A stretch of DNA of 64,000 bases from Patescibacteria group bacterium (GTDB taxonomy: Bacteria; Patescibacteriota; Minisyncoccia; UBA6257; 2-01-FULL-56-20). This document shows, in pieces, positions 22,072 to 34,172 of the stretch. Below the pieces are notes generated by a model. It was not told the origin of the DNA, made no database searches, and was given only the letters and a program-made list of their open reading frames with translations. Within the stretch, counting starts at the first letter, position 1. Each line of letters opens with the position of its first letter. The stretch is taken from positions 1,969 to 65,968 of the forward strand of contig JANLHI010000021.1 in the NCBI GenBank assembly GCA_024654525.1, given 5' to 3'. Both the position numbers and the translations under genes were made by a program.

Positions 22072-24336
22072 CTAAAGTTTCTTTATCTCACCCAATACCT
22101 CCTCAACATTCCCTGTATGCACGAGAAAGAAATGCTGGTCTTTACCGAGTTTCGCCCATAGTTCACCAATCTCAATCTTGTATGCCGTGTCTTCATTGCT
22201 CACGCGATCGCCGCCTTTCCACTCAAGCGCGATAATCGCGCCTTTATTGGTGACCGCGATAAAGTCGGGGTAAAACTTTCCTTTCTTCCAACCTTGGATA
22301 AAGAACGGGTCCACCTTCTCGCGACTGCGCACCCAGTATTTAATGTTCGCGAGGGTGTCCAAGTCAAGACGTTGAACAAACTCGTGTTCCTCCTTGTTTA
22401 GCTTGTCAATTTTCTCGTAGTAGTTTCGATTGAACTCTTGCGGCACGGCGCGTTTTAGCGTGATGGTGTCGGGAAATGCCTTAAACGGCTTTGTAGAAAC
22501 CTTCCCTGCTTTCATCTTGGTGTCGAACTGTGTCTTCGCATACGCTTCGAGAACAGATTCGATGTGCTGGCTCAAACGATCCGCGAGCACGAAGCGATTT
22601 ACCGAAAGCTCCGCAAGCGAATGTGTTTTGAGTTGATGGTCAATCGCCTTGTCCAAGAAGCGCACCTTGTCCGACTTCTCAAGAATCGTGAAGCGCAGTT
22701 TTTTATCGAGCCATTGTACAAGCTCCTCTTTGGTAAGGTTTTTGTCCGAGTATTTCAACTTGAGCGACATTTGTACTCCTCGTATCCACGCATCATCTTC
22801 CCGGATGTCAATAATCGCGCGACCATCACTGTCATAATGCACTTCAAAATCAAATTTCGGGTCTTGCTTCGCAAGCTCAAAATCACTGCCGATCAAATCC
22901 TCAAAGGTGAGCTTGTCGCCATCAAGCGCCATGAGTGGCACTTTGAGGATCCCGGACACTGCCTTCTTTGCTTCAAGTTCGTATACAGCATCTTTCTTTT
23001 CAGCGCTTACGATGTCTGCTCGGCTGTATCCGTTGTCTTCAAGTCCGGAGATAATCTGGTTCGCCGCCTCGTTAAAGTTTCGCGCCGAGGCAAACACATA
23101 GCTTCGGTTAAAATCTTCGTCGGTTTTCCGCTTCGCATTCGGCATGCGGATAATGCGCCCGATAATCTGTTCCACGGCAATTTTCGAGCCGAGGTTCGCA
23201 ACAGAGACGAGTACATACGCAAACGCGCAGTCCCATCCTTCCGCAAGCGCGTTGACGGTGATGATGTAGCGTATTTTGCAGGTTTTGCTAAAGAGGTTCA
23301 CGCCTTCAAGATCGTTCTTATCCGATGTCTTGATAGCGATTTCTTCTTCGGGAATTTTTCGCTCCAAAAGAAAAGCTTTTATCTCCTCCACGGTAACGGT
23401 CTTGTTCACCGAGCTTTTTGGCTGTGCCTGCAAGAGTGCTATCGGCCGGATGTACTCGTTCTTTATTTTCTTCGCTCCTTTTTCAAGTTCAATGCGCTTT
23501 TCAATACCGTTCGTGAGCGCGTTTTGCCACTGCGCCGCACTTTCAAGCACAATAGGAATTTTGACCATCTGCTCATCTTTCAATTCAGACGCATGTACCT
23601 CAAAGAGAATATTGCTTTCCTTGAGCGGCGTGGCAGTGTACTCAACAACAAATGCGGGGTTGAGACCGTTTATAGTTTCAAGAGACAAATCCGAAGTCGC
23701 CTTATGTCCCTCGTCGATGACTATAATCGGATTATTCAAACGAATGGTGTTTGCGAGCGAGTTAATGACCGTGCCTTCCTCGTCGCGCTCTAAATATTCC
23801 GGCTCCTCAATATTTTCAAAATGATCCATCAACGAGCCGTTCTCTTGGTACACCTTGTATTTGCCTTGCTTCTGCTTTTTCTTATTGAACGCCGCAAAGC
23901 TGGCTACGATAATGCAAAGATTATCGCTCACATCCGCCTTGCGGATAGCAAGAGCTTCTTCGTTTGAGAATACACGCACATGGTTGTCATACGATTCATC
24001 ATGAATCTGGCGGTGCGGGTCTTTGCGGTCTTTCAGTTTTTTGAGCGTTTGCGTTTTAATTGCTTCGGAAGGTGTAAACCACAACACAACGCCACGATCC
24101 ATCTTGTCTTGAAGTGCTTTGCTCATTATTTTCTCAACCGCGTGACACCCGACGAGCGTCTTGCCTCCACCGGTCGGTATTTTAATGCAGACAAACGGCA
24201 CTTCGCCAAATGCCTCCGCTTTGTACGGGTTTTCGGTGATGCCCATAAAGGCATACCTCAACCCGACTTTCCGAAGTTCGACCAGAAAGTTCTCAAGCGT
24301 TTCTAAACTATTCTTTTGGTATCGTTTTAGTTGCAT
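22072..24336 (-). CDS. res: Type III restriction endonuclease, Res subunit (SF2 helicase plus nuclease)
   Basis: Helicase motif I PTGGGKT and motif II DEGH. 754 aa. Lies immediately downstream of the mod gene on the same strand. Confidence 0.8.
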   Translation of the reverse strand: MQLKRYQKNSLETLENFLVELRKVGLRYAFMGITENPYKAEAFGEVPFVCIKIPTGGGKTLVGCHAVEKIMSKALQDKMDRGVVLWFTPSEAIKTQTLKKLKDRKDPHRQIHDESYDNHVRVFSNEEALAIRKADVSDNLCIIVASFAAFNKKKQKQGKYKVYQENGSLMDHFENIEEPEYLERDEEGTVINSLANTIRLNNPIIVIDEGHKATSDLSLETINGLNPAFVVEYTATPLKESNILFEVHASELKDEQMVKIPIVLESAAQWQNALTNGIEKRIELEKGAKKIKNEYIRPIALLQAQPKSSVNKTVTVEEIKAFLLERKIPEEEIAIKTSDKNDLEGVNLFSKTCKIRYIITVNALAEGWDCAFAYVLVSVANLGSKIAVEQIIGRIIRMPNAKRKTDEDFNRSYVFASARNFNEAANQIISGLEDNGYSRADIVSAEKKDAVYELEAKKAVSGILKVPLMALDGDKLTFEDLIGSDFELAKQDPKFDFEVHYDSDGRAIIDIREDDAWIRGVQMSLKLKYSDKNLTKEELVQWLDKKLRFTILEKSDKVRFLDKAIDHQLKTHSLAELSVNRFVLADRLSQHIESVLEAYAKTQFDTKMKAGKVSTKPFKAFPDTITLKRAVPQEFNRNYYEKIDKLNKEEHEFVQRLDLDTLANIKYWVRSREKVDPFFIQGWKKGKFYPDFIAVTNKGAIIALEWKGGDRVSNEDTAYKIEIGELWAKLGKDQHFFLVHTGNVEEVLGEIKKL

Positions 24337-24340
24337 ATAA

Positions 24341-25873
24341 TTAATATACTTTCACCTCGTACGGAATCTGCTTAAAGACGATGTTATGAGCGGCAAGTGT
24401 GTCGTCGTCCAATAGACATCGGTCTGCGTAGACTATCTTCTTTTTATCAGAATCTCCAATCGTCTTGAGTGTCGCCTTGTCGAGCTCATTTTTGTTCTTT
24501 CCCTTGTAGAGAAGATAGTATTCGGTGTCGCCATACTCGCCGATATAGTTGCCACTGATTTTCTTTGGGTCAATATTTGTTTGCGTTTCGGTGAAGTAGA
24601 TATAAGTGGCAAATTGTTTAAAATCGCAGGTTTCTTCGATCTGTCCATCCTCGTTGAAAAGCGGCTTGTCTAACTCGCAATACTCAAAGCCGTCATTGTA
24701 GTCGTACTTTTTGATAGCCCGCTTCACGCGCTCGGCAGTAATGTCTCTTGCAACCTTATCTTCCATTTCCACGAGGATAAATTTCCGGCTTCCACCGTCT
24801 TCTTTGTTTAAGTCCAAAACAGCTTGCGCTGTTGTACCGGAGCCTGCAAATGAGTCCAAAATGAGAGAGTCTTTTTGCGAAGCTAGTTCAAGAATTCTTT
24901 TGATCAAACCGACGGGTTTTGGCGTCTCAAAAATACCTCCATCAAAAAGATTAATAATCTCATTCTTACCTTCCTTGTTTGTCGCAACGTCTGTCCAAAT
25001 GTTGCTTGCCGGAATACCCGTGCTCTCGTGCGCATAAATCACGCGCTGAGGTACACCGTCGCCTTTCATGCCAAAATAAATCTTGCCCTCACTCAGTAGA
25101 CGTTTATAGCTTTCCTCCGGGTATGCCCATTCTCTTTTGTGTTTTTTGCCAGAAGGCGTAACTATTTCGTAAGTATATCCACCACTTTTATGCCCCTTTG
25201 TTGTGGCTATGGGTACCGGTCTCCACTTTCCGTTTGGAAATTCTTTTGTCGGCGGTTTGTATGCAGTTTCAATATAAGCTTCGCTGAGAGAAAGCAAATT
25301 AAGTTGGGCGATTTTGGAACGAGCATACACAACGATATATTCTGCCTTTACCGTGATATTTCTACTATCGTTTGAGCTCTCTTTCTTCCGTTGCCATGTG
25401 ACGGTCGTAACGTGATTTTCTTCAAGAAAAATCTCATCCATAGCACCACGAAGATTGCAGTGCTCATTTTCATCAACAGAAATAAATATAAATCCGTCGT
25501 CTGTTAGTAAATCGCGCAAAAGTTTCAGGCGCGGATACATCATGCAAAGCCACTTGTCGTGACGCGTTAAATCTTCCGACTCTTTTCCGACAACTTTGCC
25601 AAGCCACTGTTTTATCTTTGGTGAGTTTACTTTGTCGTTATAAACCCACCCTTCGTTGCCGGTATTGTACGGAGGATCAATGTAAATACATTTAACTTTG
25701 CCGACATAGTGTGGCATCAATGCTTTAAGCGCTTCCAAATTGTCGCCGTGCACTATGAGGTTTTTTGAATGCTCGCCAACAGACGCACCTTTTACTTTCT
25801 TGAACAACTTAAAAGGAACCTCCTTATCGTGGTTTACAACTGCATCTTTACCTATCCAGTTTAGCGTTGCCAT
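24341..25873 (-). CDS. mod: Type III R-M DNA methyltransferase, Mod subunit (N6-adenine or N4-cytosine MTase, DPPY type)
   Basis: Motif IV CIYIDPPYNTG and motif I LILDSFAGSGTTAQAV; 510 aa. Confidence 0.85.
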   Translation of the reverse strand: MATLNWIGKDAVVNHDKEVPFKLFKKVKGASVGEHSKNLIVHGDNLEALKALMPHYVGKVKCIYIDPPYNTGNEGWVYNDKVNSPKIKQWLGKVVGKESEDLTRHDKWLCMMYPRLKLLRDLLTDDGFIFISVDENEHCNLRGAMDEIFLEENHVTTVTWQRKKESSNDSRNITVKAEYIVVYARSKIAQLNLLSLSEAYIETAYKPPTKEFPNGKWRPVPIATTKGHKSGGYTYEIVTPSGKKHKREWAYPEESYKRLLSEGKIYFGMKGDGVPQRVIYAHESTGIPASNIWTDVATNKEGKNEIINLFDGGIFETPKPVGLIKRILELASQKDSLILDSFAGSGTTAQAVLDLNKEDGGSRKFILVEMEDKVARDITAERVKRAIKKYDYNDGFEYCELDKPLFNEDGQIEETCDFKQFATYIYFTETQTNIDPKKISGNYIGEYGDTEYYLLYKGKNKNELDKATLKTIGDSDKKKIVYADRCLLDDDTLAAHNIVFKQIPYEVKVY

Positions 25874-25990: not shown

Positions 25991-26019
25991 TTGACTTTTT
26001 ATTGTACATAGTCTAGGAT
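25991..26019 (+). promoter_or_regulatory. Candidate sigma70-type promoter of the higB cassette (TTGACT, 17-nt spacer, TAGGAT) with a TGTACA palindrome in the spacer
   Basis: Sequence inspection only. A TTGTTgggAACAA inverted repeat lies just downstream and could be an operator. Confidence 0.3.
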
Positions 26020-26061: not shown

Positions 26062-26349
26062 ATGAGATTACTGGGCAAACAACAGCTACACGACTTTAAG
26101 GAAAAACATGCTGATGCCCGGTCGCAGGTCGAATCGTGGGAGGCGGAAGTCGAGAGCGCGGAGTGGAAAACCCCTCACGAACTCAAGAGTAGGTTCCCTA
26201 GCGTAGATACACCCGGTAACCAGCAAGCCATTTTCAATATATGTGGCAACAAATACCGGCTGTGGGCACAGGTAGAGTATAAGCAAGGAATCGTGTTAGT
26301 AAAGAGGATTGGAACACATAAGGAATACAGCAAGTGGAAAATCGTATAA
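26062..26349 (+). CDS. higB: Type II toxin HigB family (RelE/ParE superfamily mRNA interferase)
   Basis: 95 aa. NQQAIFNICGNKYRLWAQVEYKQGIVLVKRIGTHKEYSK matches the HigB_toxin family pattern (F.I.GN.YRL...IGTH.EY). Confidence 0.7.
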   Translation: MRLLGKQQLHDFKEKHADARSQVESWEAEVESAEWKTPHELKSRFPSVDTPGNQQAIFNICGNKYRLWAQVEYKQGIVLVKRIGTHKEYSKWKIV

Positions 26350-26355
26350 AAAGCC

Positions 26356-27603
26356 ATGACCCAAATAAAAGTTATAAAAAATCAAAAAGACTACGAAGAA
26401 GCTCTCAAGCTCATTGAGGGGCTTATGAACCGTAGCCCTGACCCCAACAGCGACGAAGGTGCACAACTTGAACTTCTTAGCGTCCTTATTGAGGACTACG
26501 AGTCAAGACAATTCCCTAGTGCACTTCCTAGTCCTGTCGAGGCAATCAGATTCCGCATGGAACAAAGCGACCTCAAACCGGTTGATCTCGTACCCTACCT
26601 CGGTAGCCGTAGCCGTGTTTCTGAAATCCTTTCCGGAAAACGACAACTCACGCTTGATATGGTTCGTGCTCTTTCTACGGGTCTTGGTATTCCGGAAAAG
26701 GTGCTTGTCCAAAAACCGAATCAATCGGAAGAATCGCGTTATGAACGCTGGGATATACGCATAGTCCGGGCTATGGAAAGCTACGGGTACTTCGGGAACA
26801 AAACGCTAAAGAAATTCAACAAGGGCGAACTACTGAAAAAATATTTTGGCTCTTTTGGTGGAAACTTACAACCAGTAGCACTTCTCCGTGCCAGTATCAG
26901 CCATCGTTCTGCCCCAAGAACAGATACTGGGGCATTGGATGCATGGAAAATTCGCGTGCTACAAAAAGCAGAGAAAATAAAAACGTCTGTTAAATACAAA
27001 CACGGGGTTATTGATGTTGATTTCATGCGCAAGCTCGTCAAATTAAGCACAAAAAAAGACGGGCCAACTTTGGCGTGCGAAGAATTAAAAAAGATAGGAA
27101 TCAAAGTGGTGATTGAACGACATCTTCCAAAAACTTTCCTCGATGGTGCAGCTATTCTAGAAGATAAAGACAATCCTGTAATCGGCATCACACTTCGACA
27201 TGACCGACTAGATAACTTCTGGTTTACGCTTATGCATGAGGTGGCTCACGTAGCACTACACTGCGATCAAAATATCAGCACTTTTTACGATGAGAAATTG
27301 CTAGAAAAGAACGGAGGGCAAATGACAGAAGAAGAACAGAAACGGGAACGTGAAGCCGACGAATGGGCGGAGGAAGCCATTTTACCGGAGAGTAAGTGGG
27401 AGATTAGTAACGCAAAAATCACTCCATCACCCATGGCAGCACAAAGTCTCGCTAACGAACTCAGTATTCACGTTGCCGTAGTTGCTGGTGTTGTGCGATT
27501 CAAACATCAAAATTTCTTCTACTTGAACAAGATCGTTAATGACGAAACTGCAAAAGTACGCCGACTATTTCCTGATGCGTTTAAAGCAAAAACAGTAACA
27601 TGA
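26356..27603 (+). CDS. HigA-like antitoxin (helical N-domain plus XRE HTH) fused to an ImmA/IrrE (DUF955, M78-like) metallopeptidase domain
   Basis: Residues 1-135 mirror the E. coli HigA architecture (YEEALKLIEGLMNRSPDPNSDEGAQLELLSVLIEDYE, then LGSRSRVSEILSGKRQLTLDMVRALSTGLGI). The C-terminal region carries the HExxH motif HEVAHVALH with downstream Glu residues, typical of ImmA/IrrE. Confidence 0.7.
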   Translation: MTQIKVIKNQKDYEEALKLIEGLMNRSPDPNSDEGAQLELLSVLIEDYESRQFPSALPSPVEAIRFRMEQSDLKPVDLVPYLGSRSRVSEILSGKRQLTLDMVRALSTGLGIPEKVLVQKPNQSEESRYERWDIRIVRAMESYGYFGNKTLKKFNKGELLKKYFGSFGGNLQPVALLRASISHRSAPRTDTGALDAWKIRVLQKAEKIKTSVKYKHGVIDVDFMRKLVKLSTKKDGPTLACEELKKIGIKVVIERHLPKTFLDGAAILEDKDNPVIGITLRHDRLDNFWFTLMHEVAHVALHCDQNISTFYDEKLLEKNGGQMTEEEQKREREADEWAEEAILPESKWEISNAKITPSPMAAQSLANELSIHVAVVAGVVRFKHQNFFYLNKIVNDETAKVRRLFPDAFKAKTVT

Positions 27604-28715
27604 CAGCTATAAAACCCTACATTCCTATACTTCGCTCACGACCTGCTGAAATGCTGGCACTTGAACGCATGTATCCGCAAGATCGCGAACAGATTACACC
27701 GTTTATCGAGTTCATCATGCCACCACCAAAAACAGACAAAGATGATCGCACGAAGATTGTCGAGGACTCTAGAAGTAAACTTCTCAGACAACTATCAGAT
27801 GTTGGCGTGCGACTTCTCAAGTATTGTGGTAGAGAAGCAGTATTTATAGACGTGCATCTACTCGACGGGGATATACGTGCAGATGCGTTTGAAAGCATTC
27901 TTTCGGCAACAAACGAAGTTGATCTCTTCTCAATTCCCGTTGTTCATATTGTCCCTGTTATAGGTACAGATGCGGACATGGCAACACGAGAAGTGGCTGT
28001 GAAATACGCAAAAATCAACGACAGAGGTATGTGTATTCGTATTGATATTTCTCATTTCAAAGACGAGAATCTTGTGACTCACATTGATGAGTTCATAAAA
28101 GACAGTGATCTTGATATAAAAAATATTGATATTTTGGTTGACCTTCAAATCGTTGATGAGAGCACAACAGCAGAATCCGTCGTTGGAAAACTTAATCGTC
28201 TTCCGCAAATCAAATCCTGCCGCTCTTTTATTCTTACGGGAGGAGCATTTCCAAAAGATCTCTCAGAATACCCCAAACATGGGAACTACCAACGAGAACG
28301 GCTTGACTATGCGCTTTGGCAAAGCGTAAGTAACTTGATTACAAGTCGAAAACCGTATTTCTCTGACTACACAATCCAACATCCTATTTACTACGGCAAC
28401 ATGCCCGGTGTGAACCCTAGCGCTAGCGTACGGTACACAAACGATACCCAATGGGAGATTATTCGAGGTGAAGGTTTGAGAAATAAAAAAGGGGCAGGAT
28501 TCAAACAGTATTTGGCACATGCACGAGAGATAATTCAACAGCCATTCTACAAGAACGCCGATTATAGTTTTGGGGATTCAGAAATTAACCGTATTGCTTC
28601 GCAGGATGAAAAGACAGGAAATCCGCAACTGTGGCTAAACATTGGTATCAACCACCATTTGACGCTAGTGGCGAAACAACTCGCTGACTTTCGCGAGAAG
28701 ATAAAGCAGTCATAA
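27600..28715 (+). CDS. Uncharacterised 371-aa protein, translationally coupled to the HigA-ImmA gene (ATGA start/stop overlap)
   Basis: Clean ORF with coding-like composition. No motif I can assign with confidence. From memory only, it may belong to the sce7725 / beta-protein family that pairs with sce7726-type PD-(D/E)xK proteins. Confidence 0.5.
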   Translation: MTAIKPYIPILRSRPAEMLALERMYPQDREQITPFIEFIMPPPKTDKDDRTKIVEDSRSKLLRQLSDVGVRLLKYCGREAVFIDVHLLDGDIRADAFESILSATNEVDLFSIPVVHIVPVIGTDADMATREVAVKYAKINDRGMCIRIDISHFKDENLVTHIDEFIKDSDLDIKNIDILVDLQIVDESTTAESVVGKLNRLPQIKSCRSFILTGGAFPKDLSEYPKHGNYQRERLDYALWQSVSNLITSRKPYFSDYTIQHPIYYGNMPGVNPSASVRYTNDTQWEIIRGEGLRNKKGAGFKQYLAHAREIIQQPFYKNADYSFGDSEINRIASQDEKTGNPQLWLNIGINHHLTLVAKQLADFREKIKQS

Positions 28716-29301
28716 CGTGCCCTTTGAGCGCGTCGAGATCGTCCTTGAAGACCTCGGCAATCTTCTCGTGAATTACACTGCGGGATTTTGAACGAATGCC
28801 ATCAGCCGCGTTTCTCTCCTCCAAGATGCTTAGGGCCTGTGTGCGCCACAGCATTCGAGCTAGGGAAACAGGTACTTGAGCGTCTTCATTCTGTCTTGCC
28901 TCTCGAATCGTAAAGAAAACAACCTGTTGACCTGAGTCTATCTTTGCGAGATCAATACCCCACCATTCCGGGATCCGGTGAATCGCGTCGAGTAAATGAC
29001 GCTGACCAACAACGAGCGTTATCTTATCAAAAACTTCGTTGTACTCGTGGATCTGATCAAACAAGCGTGAGAGAGTATCTTTGTCGCTCTTAATCTCATA
29101 ACCGTGCATAACGCCGTTTATGACGGCCATATCGATTCGTGCCCTACCATGACTCACTCCTAGTTCCTCAAAAATGTCGGCCTGCTTACCAGTTTGCGTT
29201 CTATACTCGTCCAACTCTTTTTCAATACGCCGTCGCAATTCTATTCGTATGATGTGATCATTCGTGGAAACTATTTTTTTATTGAAATTTTGTGTTTCCA
29301 T
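28648..29301 (-). CDS. PD-(D/E)xK nuclease-fold protein (possibly sce7726-like), convergent to the 27600..28715 gene, with a 68-nt 3' overlap
   Basis: Motif GRARIDMAVINGVMHGYEIKSDKD fits the D...(E/D)xK catalytic core. 217 aa. Confidence 0.5.
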   Translation of the reverse strand: METQNFNKKIVSTNDHIIRIELRRRIEKELDEYRTQTGKQADIFEELGVSHGRARIDMAVINGVMHGYEIKSDKDTLSRLFDQIHEYNEVFDKITLVVGQRHLLDAIHRIPEWWGIDLAKIDSGQQVVFFTIREARQNEDAQVPVSLARMLWRTQALSILEERNAADGIRSKSRSVIHEKIAEVFKDDLDALKGHVMTALSSRESQRVVSPLASNGG

Positions 29302-29527: not shown

Positions 29528-29620
29528 AAAATAAAAAACATAGACAGCGGAAATGGGGCAGAGGGCCGGACGCGCCGCCAAAATTTCTGCCCCTAAAAAG
29601 CCAGTTGAGTTTGATTCTTG

Positions 29621-29692
29621 AGCCGGTGGTCGGATTTGAACCGACGACCCACGCTTTACGAAAGCGTTGCTCTGCCCCTGAGCTACACCGGC
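29621..29692 (-). tRNA. tRNA-Thr (anticodon CGU)
   Basis: Minus-strand sequence GCCGGTGTAGCTCAGGGGCAGAGCAACGCTTTCGTAAAGCGTGGGTCGTCGGTTCAAATCCGACCACCGGCT folds as a cloverleaf. Anticodon loop TTCGTAA, T-loop GGTTCAAATCC. CCA is not encoded. Confidence 0.85.
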
Positions 29693-29852: not shown

Positions 29853-32800
29853 ATGCCTAAATTCGTACACTTACATACTCACTCCCACTATTCGCTTCTC
29901 GATGGACTCGCAAAAATCGAAGACCTTGTGGCACGCACCAAAGAGCTCGGCATGGATACGCTTGCATTAACCGATCATGGCGTACTCTATGGTGCAGTAG
30001 AATTTTATAAAAAAACGAGAGCGGCGGGCATCAAACCCATCTTAGGAGTCGAAGCATACATTGCACCGAAGGAACGCCAAAATAAAGACGCGGGAGACAG
30101 ATATTATCACCTTATTCTTCTTGCCGAAAATAATACGGGGTGGAAAAATCTCATAAAACTCGTAACAAAAGCACAGCTTGAAGGGTTTTATTACAAACCA
30201 CGGATGGATAAAGAACTTCTTCGCGAATATCACGAAGGCATTATCTCACTTTCAGGATGCTTCTCCGGAGAACTTGCGCGCGCCATTCTTGCGGGAGATT
30301 CCGGCGAAAAGATACTTAAGGAATATCAGGATATCTTCGGTCCGGAAAATTTCTTTATCGAGATAGGGTACCATCCTCACATCAATCGCGCAGAACACGA
30401 CAAACTTTGGAACGGCTTGATTGCACTTTCAAAAAAAACGGGGGCTCCTCTTGTCGCCACACAAGACCTTCACTATGCGCGCCCCGAAGACCGCGACTAC
30501 CATGATATATTGCTTGCGGTTCAAACCGGGAGCAATTTGAGCGACCAAGACAGACTCACCCTCAAAGCGGATGACTTTTCCATGACGTCTCCCGAGGATA
30601 TGGCAGAAAAATTCAAAGATATTCCCGAAGCGGTAACGAACACCGTTCGCATCGCCGAACGATGCAATGTAACACTGGAACTTGGAAAAACTCAACTTCC
30701 CGAATTTCCAAAACCCGAAGGGATAAGCGCGAACGAGTATGTCCGCACGCTTGCCACCGAAGGATTAACACGCCGATTTCCCGGTATCACATGCACACAA
30801 GAAGCGAAAGATCGTCTTGAGTATGAGCTTGGCGTTATAGAAAAAACAGGATTTGCGGATTATTTCCTTATTGTCCAAGACCTTACCGGATGGGCGCGCG
30901 CGCATGGCATTGCGGTCGGTCCGGGCCGTGGTTCTGCGGCGGGAAGTCTGGTTTCCTATGTTCTGGGTATTACCGATATTAATCCTTTGAAATACGGATT
31001 ACTCTTCGAACGATTCTTGAATCCGGAGCGTATTCAAATGCCCGATATCGACATTGATTTTGCCGATGCGCGAAGAGACGAAGTACTTGCCTATGCCCGT
31101 CAAAAATACGGAGAAGACCACGTAGCGCAAATAATTACATTCGGGACTATGGCAGCACGTGCCGCAGTGAGGGATGCGGGACGGGCAATGGGTTTGCCGT
31201 ACGGTTTTTGCGATCAAATCGCGAAACTCATCCCTTTCAATGCATCGATCAAGGAATCTATTGACCAAGTACCCGAGCTTGCGGACATGGCTAAACAAAA
31301 CGAAGAAGCGCGCCGACTCTTGGACGCCGCACAACATCTTGAGGGTGTCGCACGACATGCATCGGTACACGCATGCGGTACGGTGATTACAAAAAAACCC
31401 CTCACCGAATATCTTCCTCTTCAATATGCCCCGCAAGACAGAGCGGTGATTATTACACAGTTTGAAATGCATTCCGTGGAAGACTTAGGACTTCTTAAAA
31501 TGGATCTTCTTGGGCTCCGAAACCTCACTATCATCGAGGAAACCGTGCGACTTGTGAAAAATATCCGCGGCGAAGATATTTATATTTCCGATCTTCCACT
31601 CGACGATGCCGCGACATATTCCCTTCTTCAAGCGGGTAACACTACCGGTGTGTTCCAATTCGAATGCCTTTCGGAAGAAACGATCGTATCCAATACCACC
31701 ATTAAAAAGCTCTACGAGCGGAAGAATAAGAAGACACTCGAGTCGGTATATGTCGACGAAGGGAAAGTACATAAAAATAAAATCCTTGGTGTCGCGAAAA
31801 GCGGCGTGAAAGACGTGTATGCGCTTGTCGCCGAGAACGGGTGGTATATCAAATCTTCTGCGGACCATAATTTTCTTACCGAGAACGGATGGAAGAAACT
31901 TTCGGATATTCGACCCGGCGAAAAGATACTCATGAAGACAAAAGCAAAGCACCTCGTCTATAACGCGTGCGCACGTTGCGGGAGGCAAATTAGCGGACAA
32001 AAAGAAGGACACAGCACATTCTGCTACACGTGTTCAGCTCGCGTATATAGCAACCCCAGCAAACCGATCTCGCGCACAAAAATGAAGGTCGCGCGAACGC
32101 GGTTTTTCGAACGAGGCGGAACAGTATGGAACGAAGGCGTAACGACCGAAAATAACGAGACTTGGCGTGCAACCGCGGAAAAAATATCGCATGCGCTCAC
32201 TGGCGTATCCATTGAAACGCGATGGGGCAAGAAAAAAGCCGCGGAGATAAAAGCCCGGTTGTCGCAAAGGTTTAGAGGCGCGGGGAATCCAATGTTCGGC
32301 AAACCTGCTCCCCACCGCAAAGGAGGCGTGCGAGGAGATTTGGGCCACTATGTGCGTTCAAATTGGGAAGCGGATTTTGCACGAATCCTCAAACTGTATG
32401 GAATCGCATATGAATATGAACCGAGATCCTTTACTCTTCAAAACTCGCGGGGAGAGGTAATGCATTATACTCCCGATTTTTACGTGAAAGCCACCAATAC
32501 TTTCTATGAAATAAAGGGATGGCTCCACGATATTGACCAGAAAAAAATGGACCTTTTCCGGCAACAGTATCCTGAATACAATTTTATTCTCATTAACAAA
32601 ACAAAGTTTGCGGAACTGGCGATGCGCTACCGCAGTCTTGTCGCTTGGGAATGTCCGAGGGTTCCTACAGAACGAAGTTTTAAATTTATAAAAGTGAGGG
32701 AAGTGCGGTACGCAGGAAAAGAAGAAACGTATGACATCGCGATGGAAGCACCCGGAAATAACTTCGTGGCAAATGGATTCGTCGTGCATAACTCGAGCGG

Positions 32801-34172
32801 CATGCGTCGCTATATGAAAGATATCCATCCCACCGAACTGGAAGATTTAATTGCGCTTGTGGCACTTTTCCGCCCCGGTCCCATGGAGCTTATTCCCACA
32901 TTTATCAAACGAAAACGCGGTGAAGAAAAAATTGTGTATCTTCATCCTCGACTGGAACCTATTTTGAAAAACACCAACGGCATTGGCGTATATCAGGAGC
33001 AAATGATGCAGATTGCCCGCGATCTTGCAGGCTACACACTCCCCGAAGCAGACACGCTTCGAAAAGCAATCGGTAAAAAAATAAAATCGCTTCTTGACGA
33101 ACAGAAAGTAAAACTTACGAATGGCATGATTAAAAATGGTATTCCTCAGAAAACCGCGGAAGCGATTTGGGAACTTTTTCCTCCCTTCGCACGCTACGGA
33201 TTTAACAAGTCGCACGCGGCATGCTACGCCCTGATCGGCTATCAGACCGCGTATCTTAAAGCTCATTATCCGGTTGAATCCATGGCGGCTCTTTTAAACG
33301 CAGAAGTCAGCGATATCGAACGTATTGCGTTTTTAGTCAATGAGGCACGGCAAACCGGAATATCCATCCTTCCTCCCGACGTAAACAGCAGTTTGGTCAA
33401 ATTCTCTCCGAATGGAGAAGAAGTGCGTTATGGGCTTCTCGGTATAAAGAATGTCGGGGAACAAATTGCGCAAGCAATAGTGGAAGAAAGGATACGGGGA
33501 GGCGCCTTCGAAAACTTCACTTCTTTTCTTGCACGCATTCAACATAAAGATTTAAATAAAAAATCACTCGAAAGTTTAGCAAAATGCGGCGCACTTGAAT
33601 CTCTTGATATAGAGCGCAATCAAGCTATCCAGAACATGGACGATATTGTCCGCTTTGCAGGAGTTGCGCGGAAAACCGCATCCCAAACCAATTCACTTTT
33701 TGGTAATTCAACCGCATCACTCTCCATTAAATTAAAACCCGCTCCTCCCGCAACGCGAGAAGAAAAACTCGGATGGGAAAAGGAGCTCCTTGGATTTTAT
33801 CTTTCTGATCATCCCCTGAATTCATTCAAGGAACAACTTGCTACTTTGCGTGCGCGAACGCTTACCGAACTTCGCACTATTAAAAACGAGAGTCTTACCA
33901 TACGCGCCGCAGGACTTATTACCACCATCAAAAAAATATTCACGAAAAAAGGAGATGCGATGATGTTTGTGACTATTGAAGACTTTTCCCCGCAACCCTT
34001 TGAAATAGTAATTTTCCCCCGCGTACTCGAAAAAACACAGGCAGTGTGGCAAGAAAACAATGTAGTCCTTCTTCAGGGAAAAATGTCTTGGCGTGGCGGA
34101 GAACCAAAAATCATCTGCGACGATGCAAGGAAATTGGAATTGCACCACACGGAGAAAAAAACGCCCGCTTAA
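29853..34172 (+). CDS. dnaE: DNA polymerase III alpha subunit, interrupted by an in-frame intein
   Basis: N-terminal PHP domain (HLHTHSHYSLLDG), polymerase core motifs, OB-fold C-terminus. 1439 aa including a 376-aa intein, leaving about 1063 aa of extein. Confidence 0.9.
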   Translation: MPKFVHLHTHSHYSLLDGLAKIEDLVARTKELGMDTLALTDHGVLYGAVEFYKKTRAAGIKPILGVEAYIAPKERQNKDAGDRYYHLILLAENNTGWKNLIKLVTKAQLEGFYYKPRMDKELLREYHEGIISLSGCFSGELARAILAGDSGEKILKEYQDIFGPENFFIEIGYHPHINRAEHDKLWNGLIALSKKTGAPLVATQDLHYARPEDRDYHDILLAVQTGSNLSDQDRLTLKADDFSMTSPEDMAEKFKDIPEAVTNTVRIAERCNVTLELGKTQLPEFPKPEGISANEYVRTLATEGLTRRFPGITCTQEAKDRLEYELGVIEKTGFADYFLIVQDLTGWARAHGIAVGPGRGSAAGSLVSYVLGITDINPLKYGLLFERFLNPERIQMPDIDIDFADARRDEVLAYARQKYGEDHVAQIITFGTMAARAAVRDAGRAMGLPYGFCDQIAKLIPFNASIKESIDQVPELADMAKQNEEARRLLDAAQHLEGVARHASVHACGTVITKKPLTEYLPLQYAPQDRAVIITQFEMHSVEDLGLLKMDLLGLRNLTIIEETVRLVKNIRGEDIYISDLPLDDAATYSLLQAGNTTGVFQFECLSEETIVSNTTIKKLYERKNKKTLESVYVDEGKVHKNKILGVAKSGVKDVYALVAENGWYIKSSADHNFLTENGWKKLSDIRPGEKILMKTKAKHLVYNACARCGRQISGQKEGHSTFCYTCSARVYSNPSKPISRTKMKVARTRFFERGGTVWNEGVTTENNETWRATAEKISHALTGVSIETRWGKKKAAEIKARLSQRFRGAGNPMFGKPAPHRKGGVRGDLGHYVRSNWEADFARILKLYGIAYEYEPRSFTLQNSRGEVMHYTPDFYVKATNTFYEIKGWLHDIDQKKMDLFRQQYPEYNFILINKTKFAELAMRYRSLVAWECPRVPTERSFKFIKVREVRYAGKEETYDIAMEAPGNNFVANGFVVHNSSGMRRYMKDIHPTELEDLIALVALFRPGPMELIPTFIKRKRGEEKIVYLHPRLEPILKNTNGIGVYQEQMMQIARDLAGYTLPEADTLRKAIGKKIKSLLDEQKVKLTNGMIKNGIPQKTAEAIWELFPPFARYGFNKSHAACYALIGYQTAYLKAHYPVESMAALLNAEVSDIERIAFLVNEARQTGISILPPDVNSSLVKFSPNGEEVRYGLLGIKNVGEQIAQAIVEERIRGGAFENFTSFLARIQHKDLNKKSLESLAKCGALESLDIERNQAIQNMDDIVRFAGVARKTASQTNSLFGNSTASLSIKLKPAPPATREEKLGWEKELLGFYLSDHPLNSFKEQLATLRARTLTELRTIKNESLTIRAAGLITTIKKIFTKKGDAMMFVTIEDFSPQPFEIVIFPRVLEKTQAVWQENNVVLLQGKMSWRGGEPKIICDDARKLELHHTEKKTPA
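31665..32792 (+). mobile_element. Intein in DnaE (Cys1...His-Asn, followed by Ser+1) carrying a homing-endonuclease-like insert with a Zn ribbon, a NUMOD-like segment and a PD-(D/E)xK-like motif
   Basis: The insertion splits the conserved GVFQFE / SSGMRRY extein junction. Block A CLSEET, block B SADHNFLT, block F/G ETYDIAMEAPGNNFVANGFVVHN then S. Internal CARCG...CYTC Zn ribbon and YTPDFYVKATNTFYEIKG. Confidence 0.8.

Follow-up and report, generated by a model that had tools for sequence, protein, structure and literature searches.

What does a 371-codon open reading frame (ORF), placed directly behind a regulator-peptidase gene in the genome of a Patescibacteria group bacterium, encode, and does its product act alone or with its neighbors? 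The ORF lies in the window analyzed here, a stretch of 64,000 nt from contig JANLHI010000021.1, and a first-pass annotation of that window described it as an orphan and, by position, as the effector or cargo of a cassette. We refer to the ORF as gene C, to the two co-directional genes before it as A and B, and to the convergent gene after it as D. Our analysis points, with a probability of roughly 0.7, to a real gene for a Beta-family TIM-barrel protein that forms component C of a PD-lambda-2-type anti-phage operon completed by the fourth gene, D. The narrower statement that C is the Beta-family component of PD-lambda-2 can be made with high confidence.

The family assignment came from profile searches. 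The Pfam model Beta_protein (PF14350) matched C at 202.7 bits (cut-off 27; E 1.4e-59), with residues 7-357 covering profile positions 1-340 of 342. C also matched PHROG 9159 (phrog_9159; 8e-61), PADLOC PD-Lambda-2_C (3.3e-51) and the PADLOC model for P4 'beta' (7.6e-13), the PADLOC C models being broad enough that any Beta protein reaches 50-170 bits. With a full-length match to PF14350 and a cassette that as a whole corresponds to the known PD-lambda-2 defense system (PMC9519451), the label of orphan could not be kept. The Beta family comprises ~3,600 clusters at 50% identity, and all 150 of the 150 best-scoring members are single-domain proteins, the full-length ones ~340-410 aa long and a few being fragments. 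Beta_protein was the sole match of C in the Pfam search, which returned no Walker, HExxH, HNH or TIR domain, in agreement with the earlier reading that no such motif is recognizable in C. The sce7725/beta family had also been suggested, and the beta part of that suggestion is right; the sce7725 part is not, as C gave no match to NCBIfam NF033831 (60-bit cut-off) at E<=0.01 or at E<=10. Exact-sequence look-ups of C and D returned no entry, and no study of mechanism came up in literature searches on PF14350, sce7725/sce7726 and 'beta family protein'.

Gene C occupies 27600..28715 on the forward strand and begins with ATG. Direct reading of the sequence around its start (gtaacATGAcagct / gtaacATGAcagc) confirmed both the ORF and the reported overlap with the gene before it, two bases being common to its ATG (27600-27602) and the TGA that ends the upstream 415-aa ORF (26356..27603). 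The position of the start is supported because homologue alignments begin at residues 1-7 of C. Four-base overlaps are frequent in operons and carry little meaning by themselves. When the B-C junction was compared in 43 homologous loci, the exact ATGA form was present in only 3, and the gap from the B stop to the C start was -14 to +21 nt in 41 of them, with a mode of +1 (TAAnATG). Close coupling is thus a conserved trait of the gene pair and the exact ATGA form is not, so the proposal that C is operonic and tightly coupled to the gene for the helix-turn-helix (HTH)-peptidase holds here and across the homologous loci.

PD-lambda-2 is a three-gene abortive-infection system from E. coli ECOR42 (Vassallo et al. 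2022; PMC9519451), and the cassette in the window has the same three proteins in the same co-directional order, A-B-C, all matching the hidden Markov models of the system. A matched Pfam HigB_toxin (1.4e-25) and PADLOC PD-Lambda-2_A (3.9e-38; positions 1-93 of 94), and precedes B in about 38 homologous loci. B matched PADLOC PD-Lambda-2_B (3.2e-139; positions 1-398 of 402) and capP (2.6e-8), as well as Pfam Peptidase_M78 (5e-7) and HTH_3; its N-terminal 118 residues are 46% identical to HigA of phage D6, and its translation contains an HEVAH motif. Judged by sequence, the cassette has every feature expected of PD-lambda-2, whose abortive-infection activity has been demonstrated for the E. coli ECOR42 system only. 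It differs in its host, which is a metagenome-assembled genome (MAG) of the Patescibacteria, part of the candidate phyla radiation (CPR), rather than an enterobacterium, and in being a copy known from sequence alone. It also differs in having a fourth, convergent and overlapping sce7726/cII-like gene, which lies outside the published three-gene definition (PADLOC, DefenseFinder).

The product of this fourth gene, D, matched NCBIfam sce7726_fam (NF033832) at 141.9 bits (cut-off 70) over positions 2-183 of 184 and PADLOC 'cll' at 3e-23, and a protein identical to D is deposited in NCBI as 'sce7726 family protein [Patescibacteria group bacterium]'. D carries an invariant D...ExK motif on the core strands of a predicted restriction-endonuclease-like fold and in this respect resembles PD-(D/E)xK nucleases. 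Sequence and model suggest that D is a PD-(D/E)xK nuclease-like protein with a putative nuclease role. The guess that C is paired with an sce7726-type PD-(D/E)xK protein was therefore borne out by its neighbor. With respect to the described sce7725/sce7726 pair (NF033831/NF033832), D is a bona fide sce7726 member and the idea of a conserved two-gene pair fits; C differs in being a PF14350 member that is at most a distant relative of sce7725.

Conservation of the linkage was surveyed by scanning one genome per species, and the layout of the loci was read by tblastn with the four window proteins. Relatives of C were encoded at 49 genome loci, in many CPR lineages, Acidobacteria, Gammaproteobacteria, Bacteroidetes, Actinomycetota and others. 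Every locus on a long enough contig showed the A-B-C-> <-D layout, each complete A-B-C locus having D, and several further loci had C and D without A and B. In 21 plasmid records, nearly every match was annotated as a 'beta family protein' next to an 'sce7726 family protein'. In E. coli lambdoid prophages the beta/sce7726 pair occurs by itself, as a moron, and Gordonia phage Powerball has the same pair (gp33/gp32) near its integrase; a scan of viral contigs found only two distant loci. The beta gene is nearly always accompanied by a convergent sce7726 partner across phyla, plasmids and phages, so the association of C homologues with a PD-(D/E)xK-type neighbor is strongly conserved. In the 30 complete four-gene loci, pairwise identities of A, B, C and D correlated (r 0.5-0.8), indicating that the four genes travel together. 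C was the most divergent of the four, with two clades 35% identical, compared with values near 50% for A, B and D.

These data bear on the simplest alternative, that C is a TIM-barrel enzyme of ordinary metabolism or housekeeping which happens to adjoin a toxin-antitoxin pair. Most TIM barrels are metabolic enzymes, and housekeeping genes flank the region. Linkage to HigB, the HTH-peptidase and sce7726 is nonetheless retained across phyla and on plasmids, prophages, a satellite and phages, C matches defense-system models, and homologues have experimental defense data. The conserved mobile-element and defense context effectively refutes this alternative, and we assign it hardly any probability.

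Several loci showed variant arrangements. On Agrobacterium fabrum plasmid pAt2788b (L053:2252..5606), genes for a DUF6932 protein (162 aa), which takes the place of HigB, and an HTH/M78 peptidase (418 aa) are followed by beta, with an ATGA-type overlap, and a convergent sce7726 gene; this variant operon adjoins a reverse transcriptase and helicase and a SIR2 gene. In the closest relative of the cassette, from a Candidatus Yonathbacteria MAG, B and C are separated by an additional ORF of 171 aa (L001:7476..7991, forward strand); this ORF has no match in Pfam, probably encodes a transmembrane helix and overlaps B at its start by the same ATGA. In Umezawaea beigongshangensis, beta occurs without sce7726, and the convergent abutting gene is instead a 169-aa ORF (L048:9066..9575, reverse strand) that by eye looks like a Vsr-type endonuclease (FVDGCFWH); a 633-aa ORF with a P-loop, also recognized by eye (GGPGSGKS), lies 5' of that beta gene.

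The C-D pair also connects the cassette to gop-beta-cII of satellite phage P4 (Ghisotti 1990; Rousset et al. 2022). This system protects against lambda and P1, with Gop being toxic when beta is missing (PMC9122126), and its toxicity is triggered by the phage accessory gene orf184 (bioRxiv 10.1101/2023.04.06.535777). The convergent beta-> <-cII pair has the same orientation as C and D, RefSeq calls P4 cII an 'sce7726 family protein', and C and D match the PADLOC 'beta' and 'cll' models. A toxic gene located 5' of beta and co-transcribed with it is a further likeness. The two systems differ in that HigB and the HTH-peptidase replace Gop, no gop model being matched by any of the six neighboring proteins in the window, and in that P4 beta is 23% identical to C.

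A further difference between P4 and the cassette concerns the 3' ends of the convergent genes. At 54 of 56 loci, C and D share 35-191 nt at their coding ends, and the length of this overlap is always 2 mod 3; independent RefSeq/GenBank annotations give overlaps of 41, 47, 59 and 89 nt, each of them in that phase. At 32 loci, as in the window, the stop codon of D is placed 5 nt ahead of the first His codon in the invariant (I/L)NHH motif of C. The two exceptions are one frameshifted copy and P4 itself, whose two genes stand 27 nt apart with a terminator in the gap. That the phase is constant from phylum to phylum indicates an ancestral overlap, which may be regulatory, acting via convergent transcription or an RNA duplex. 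As a side observation, the C-terminal 'GG' of D may be conserved only because it is opposite the NHH motif of C.

An AlphaFold2 model of C, built from a 38-sequence alignment, predicted with confidence a beta/alpha (TIM) barrel followed by a beta-hairpin and C-terminal helices (predicted local distance difference test 86.6, predicted TM-score 0.89). A profile search of the PDB found no relative of C, no solved structure emerged as a specific relative, and UVDE was among the Foldseek hits of the model. Residues conserved in at least 90% of 44 diverse members are E17, D84, R147, D177, D181, R208, R234 and R250, together with D256-Y257, H261-P262, Y279, G325-D326 and H352-H353, and several of these map in or beside the modeled barrel strands. 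As judged from the alignment, this pattern fits that of an enzyme, and both a metal and a phosphorylated substrate are its probable ligands.

One specific enzymatic role was examined and rejected. C does not look like a TGT/DpdA transglycosylase, as its only cysteines are C76, C145 and C207 and it has no CxCxxC...H zinc site. The absence of this site also counts against a modification/restriction-like pair, in which C, as a TGT/DpdA-like or other DNA-modifying TIM barrel, would mark self DNA, with D as restriction nuclease. Convergent gene pairs with 3' overlaps are common in restriction-modification (R-M) systems, and the restriction-endonuclease-like fold of D suits the idea, but the PDB profile search gave C no relative and the antidote relation between Gop and beta would be left unexplained. 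We consider such a pair very unlikely.

The proposal that C is an effector was weighed against the genetics of E. coli PD-lambda-2 (PMC9519451), in which B alone is toxic and A rescues. There, C is dispensable for rescue from B and required for defense against lambda-vir, and the authors likened it to 'a P4 phage antitoxin'. A terminal effector, for example a latent metal-dependent TIM-barrel phosphoesterase or hydrolase that is released by A-B and destroys nucleic acid or the nucleotide pool, would account for the requirement for C in defense, for a conserved Asp/Arg/His set that resembles an active site, and for the position of C as the last gene of a co-directional operon; TIM-barrel nucleases exist, as the UVDE hit illustrates. 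Yet B was the only component reported toxic when the E. coli components were expressed singly (PMC9519451), P4 beta is an antidote to Gop and not a poison (PMC9122126), and in the stand-alone beta/sce7726 pairs the nuclease-like protein is at least as good an effector candidate. The first-pass designation of C as effector or cargo therefore remains unproven, and we regard the effector role as a rather unlikely one.

The same P4 genetics, in which Gop kills without beta (PMC9122126), can be read in the opposite direction, with C as a non-catalytic sensor or antitoxin that holds a toxin (Gop, B or D) and releases it on recognizing a phage protein. Triggering of gop-beta-cII by orf184 agrees with this, and C diverges more than A, B or D do, as expected of a specificity component. 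Against it, ~30 positions of C show conservation of 90% or more across phyla, charged residues in or beside the predicted barrel strands among them, and C is not needed to neutralize B toxicity in E. coli (PMC9519451). A purely non-catalytic C is accordingly on the improbable side. Rather than being a free-standing toxin, C more likely serves D and the upstream toxin as their enzymatic partner or controller.

B itself recalls a further group of known proteins. Peptidases of the ImmA/IrrE/CapP type are damage-activated switches that cleave HTH repressors and control immune operons and mobile elements. Like the CapH/CapP, ImmR/ImmA and DdrO/IrrE switches, B joins an XRE HTH to an M78 HExxH peptidase, and it has a weak capP match. 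It differs in holding both functions in one chain and in being paired with a HigB-like protein, and its E. coli counterpart is itself toxic, a property not known for CapP or ImmA.

The genomic data favor a modular mechanism for the preferred reading of C as part of a four-gene operon, although the particular picture sketched here is less likely than not to be right and the division of labor among A-D that it assumes is tentative. C and D would constitute an old, self-contained two-gene core of a probable metal-dependent TIM-barrel enzyme and a nuclease, found alone in prophages or behind exchangeable front ends: Gop in P4, HigB with the HTH-peptidase here, and DUF6932 with an HTH-peptidase on rhizobial plasmids. 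A and B together would serve as a switch, toxin-antitoxin-like or CapH/CapP-like, coupling the sensing of infection to this core. The B-to-C start/stop junction would link synthesis of C to that of B, and the antisense 3' overlap could be a means to balance C against D. C would then work with, or control, nuclease-like D and the upstream toxin. An extension of this picture, doubtful at present, is that PD-lambda-2 and gop-beta-cII are two versions of one system, with the beta/cII pair as the invariant engine and the upstream genes as interchangeable triggers, or none.

Four observations weigh against the reading of C and D as parts of one conserved operon with an enzymatic C. The cloned E. coli PD-lambda-2 fragment reaches only ~390 bp past gene C, yet it defends (PMC9519451), so a convergent D, if present, would be truncated and may be dispensable there. 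A gammaproteobacterial four-gene locus, used as a blastn query for the PD-lambda-2 locus native to E. coli, retrieved nothing but beta/sce7726 morons of prophages. Acinetobacter plasmid p2_010055 carries a HigB and HTH/ImmA-peptidase pair (L054:3704..5191) with no beta/sce7726 downstream, indicating that the A-B module can stand alone. Finally, P4 beta (L051:651..1718), the founding member, lacks D256-Y257, H261 and H352-H353, so catalysis is not universal in the Beta family; P4 beta may be an inactive derivative that survives as an antidote to Gop.

Two other searches were made with the front-end genes. The Acinetobacter HigB and peptidase pair, used to look for the native PD-lambda-2 locus, found only an unrelated prophage HigB-HTH pair, and a tblastn search of phages with B gave only N-terminal domains of the HigA-like type. 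In the E. coli E6 lambdoid prophage, three genes lie between that for the repressor and gene N (L058:4435..5776): one of the HigB family, one for an HTH protein of 218 aa and one for a hypothetical protein of 134 aa. This set looks like another, different kind of prophage-borne cassette of three genes with HigB at its head.

In the window, the cassette sits in a defense island (Table 1). A Type III R-M gene pair lies directly 5' of it and together with A-D makes up a defense islet of ~7 kb; an EamA transporter gene and tRNA-Thr border the islet, and housekeeping genes flank it at either end. The tRNA gene may be a boundary or an integration site of the islet, across which we found no compositional anomaly. 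Promoter and terminator scans of the region performed no better than on shuffled sequence. Farther downstream, dnaE (29853..34172, forward strand, 1439 aa) is split by an intein at approximately residues 614-980 (Pfam Intein_splicing), which carries a Phage_endo_I-like endonuclease domain at residues 833-920.

Table 1. Coordinates of the cassette and of neighboring features, numbered from the first letter of the window.
Feature	Positions	Strand	Basis or remark
Type III R-M Res	22072..24336	-	PADLOC REase_III, 1.8e-97
Type III R-M Mod	24341..25873	-	PADLOC MTase_III, 1e-165
Candidate sigma-70-like promoter 5' of A (weak)	25991..26019	+	9/12 consensus match
Gene A, HigB-like RelE-fold toxin homologue, 95 aa, PD-Lambda-2_A	26062..26349	+	Pfam, PADLOC
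Gene B, HigA-type XRE HTH fused to ImmA/IrrE (M78) zinc peptidase, 415 aa, PD-Lambda-2_B	26356..27603	+	PADLOC, Pfam
ATGA overlap, B stop/C start	27600..27603	+	direct sequence reading
Gene C, Beta-family protein, predicted TIM barrel, 371 aa, PD-Lambda-2_C	27600..28715	+	Pfam, PADLOC, PHROG, AlphaFold2
68-nt antisense overlap, 3' coding ends of C and D	28648..28715	.	stop-to-stop comparison
Gene D, sce7726-family/P4 cII-like protein, 217 aa, PD-(D/E)xK nuclease-like core, convergent to C	28648..29301	-	NCBIfam, PADLOC
tRNA-Thr (CGT)	29620..29692	-	just past start of sce7726 gene D

The cassette is a known system in an unusual host group and in itself no new kind of biology. It places a validated, mechanistically unexplained E. 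coli defense system in the candidate phyla radiation and many other phyla, and it shows that the Beta protein, the least understood part of PD-lambda-2, almost never occurs without a nuclease-like partner, which makes the fourth overlapping gene a useful addition to the system. Conserved residues offer targets for mutation: D84, R147, D181, D256, H261 and H352/H353 in C, and D57, E69 and K71 in D. The shared two-gene core links the separately named PD-lambda-2 and gop-beta-cII. If these are indeed versions of one system, the published three-gene definition of PD-lambda-2 would miss a component, the Beta protein would catalyze a reaction new to immunity, and an ancient fixed-frame overlap may set the ratio of C to D through convergent transcription.

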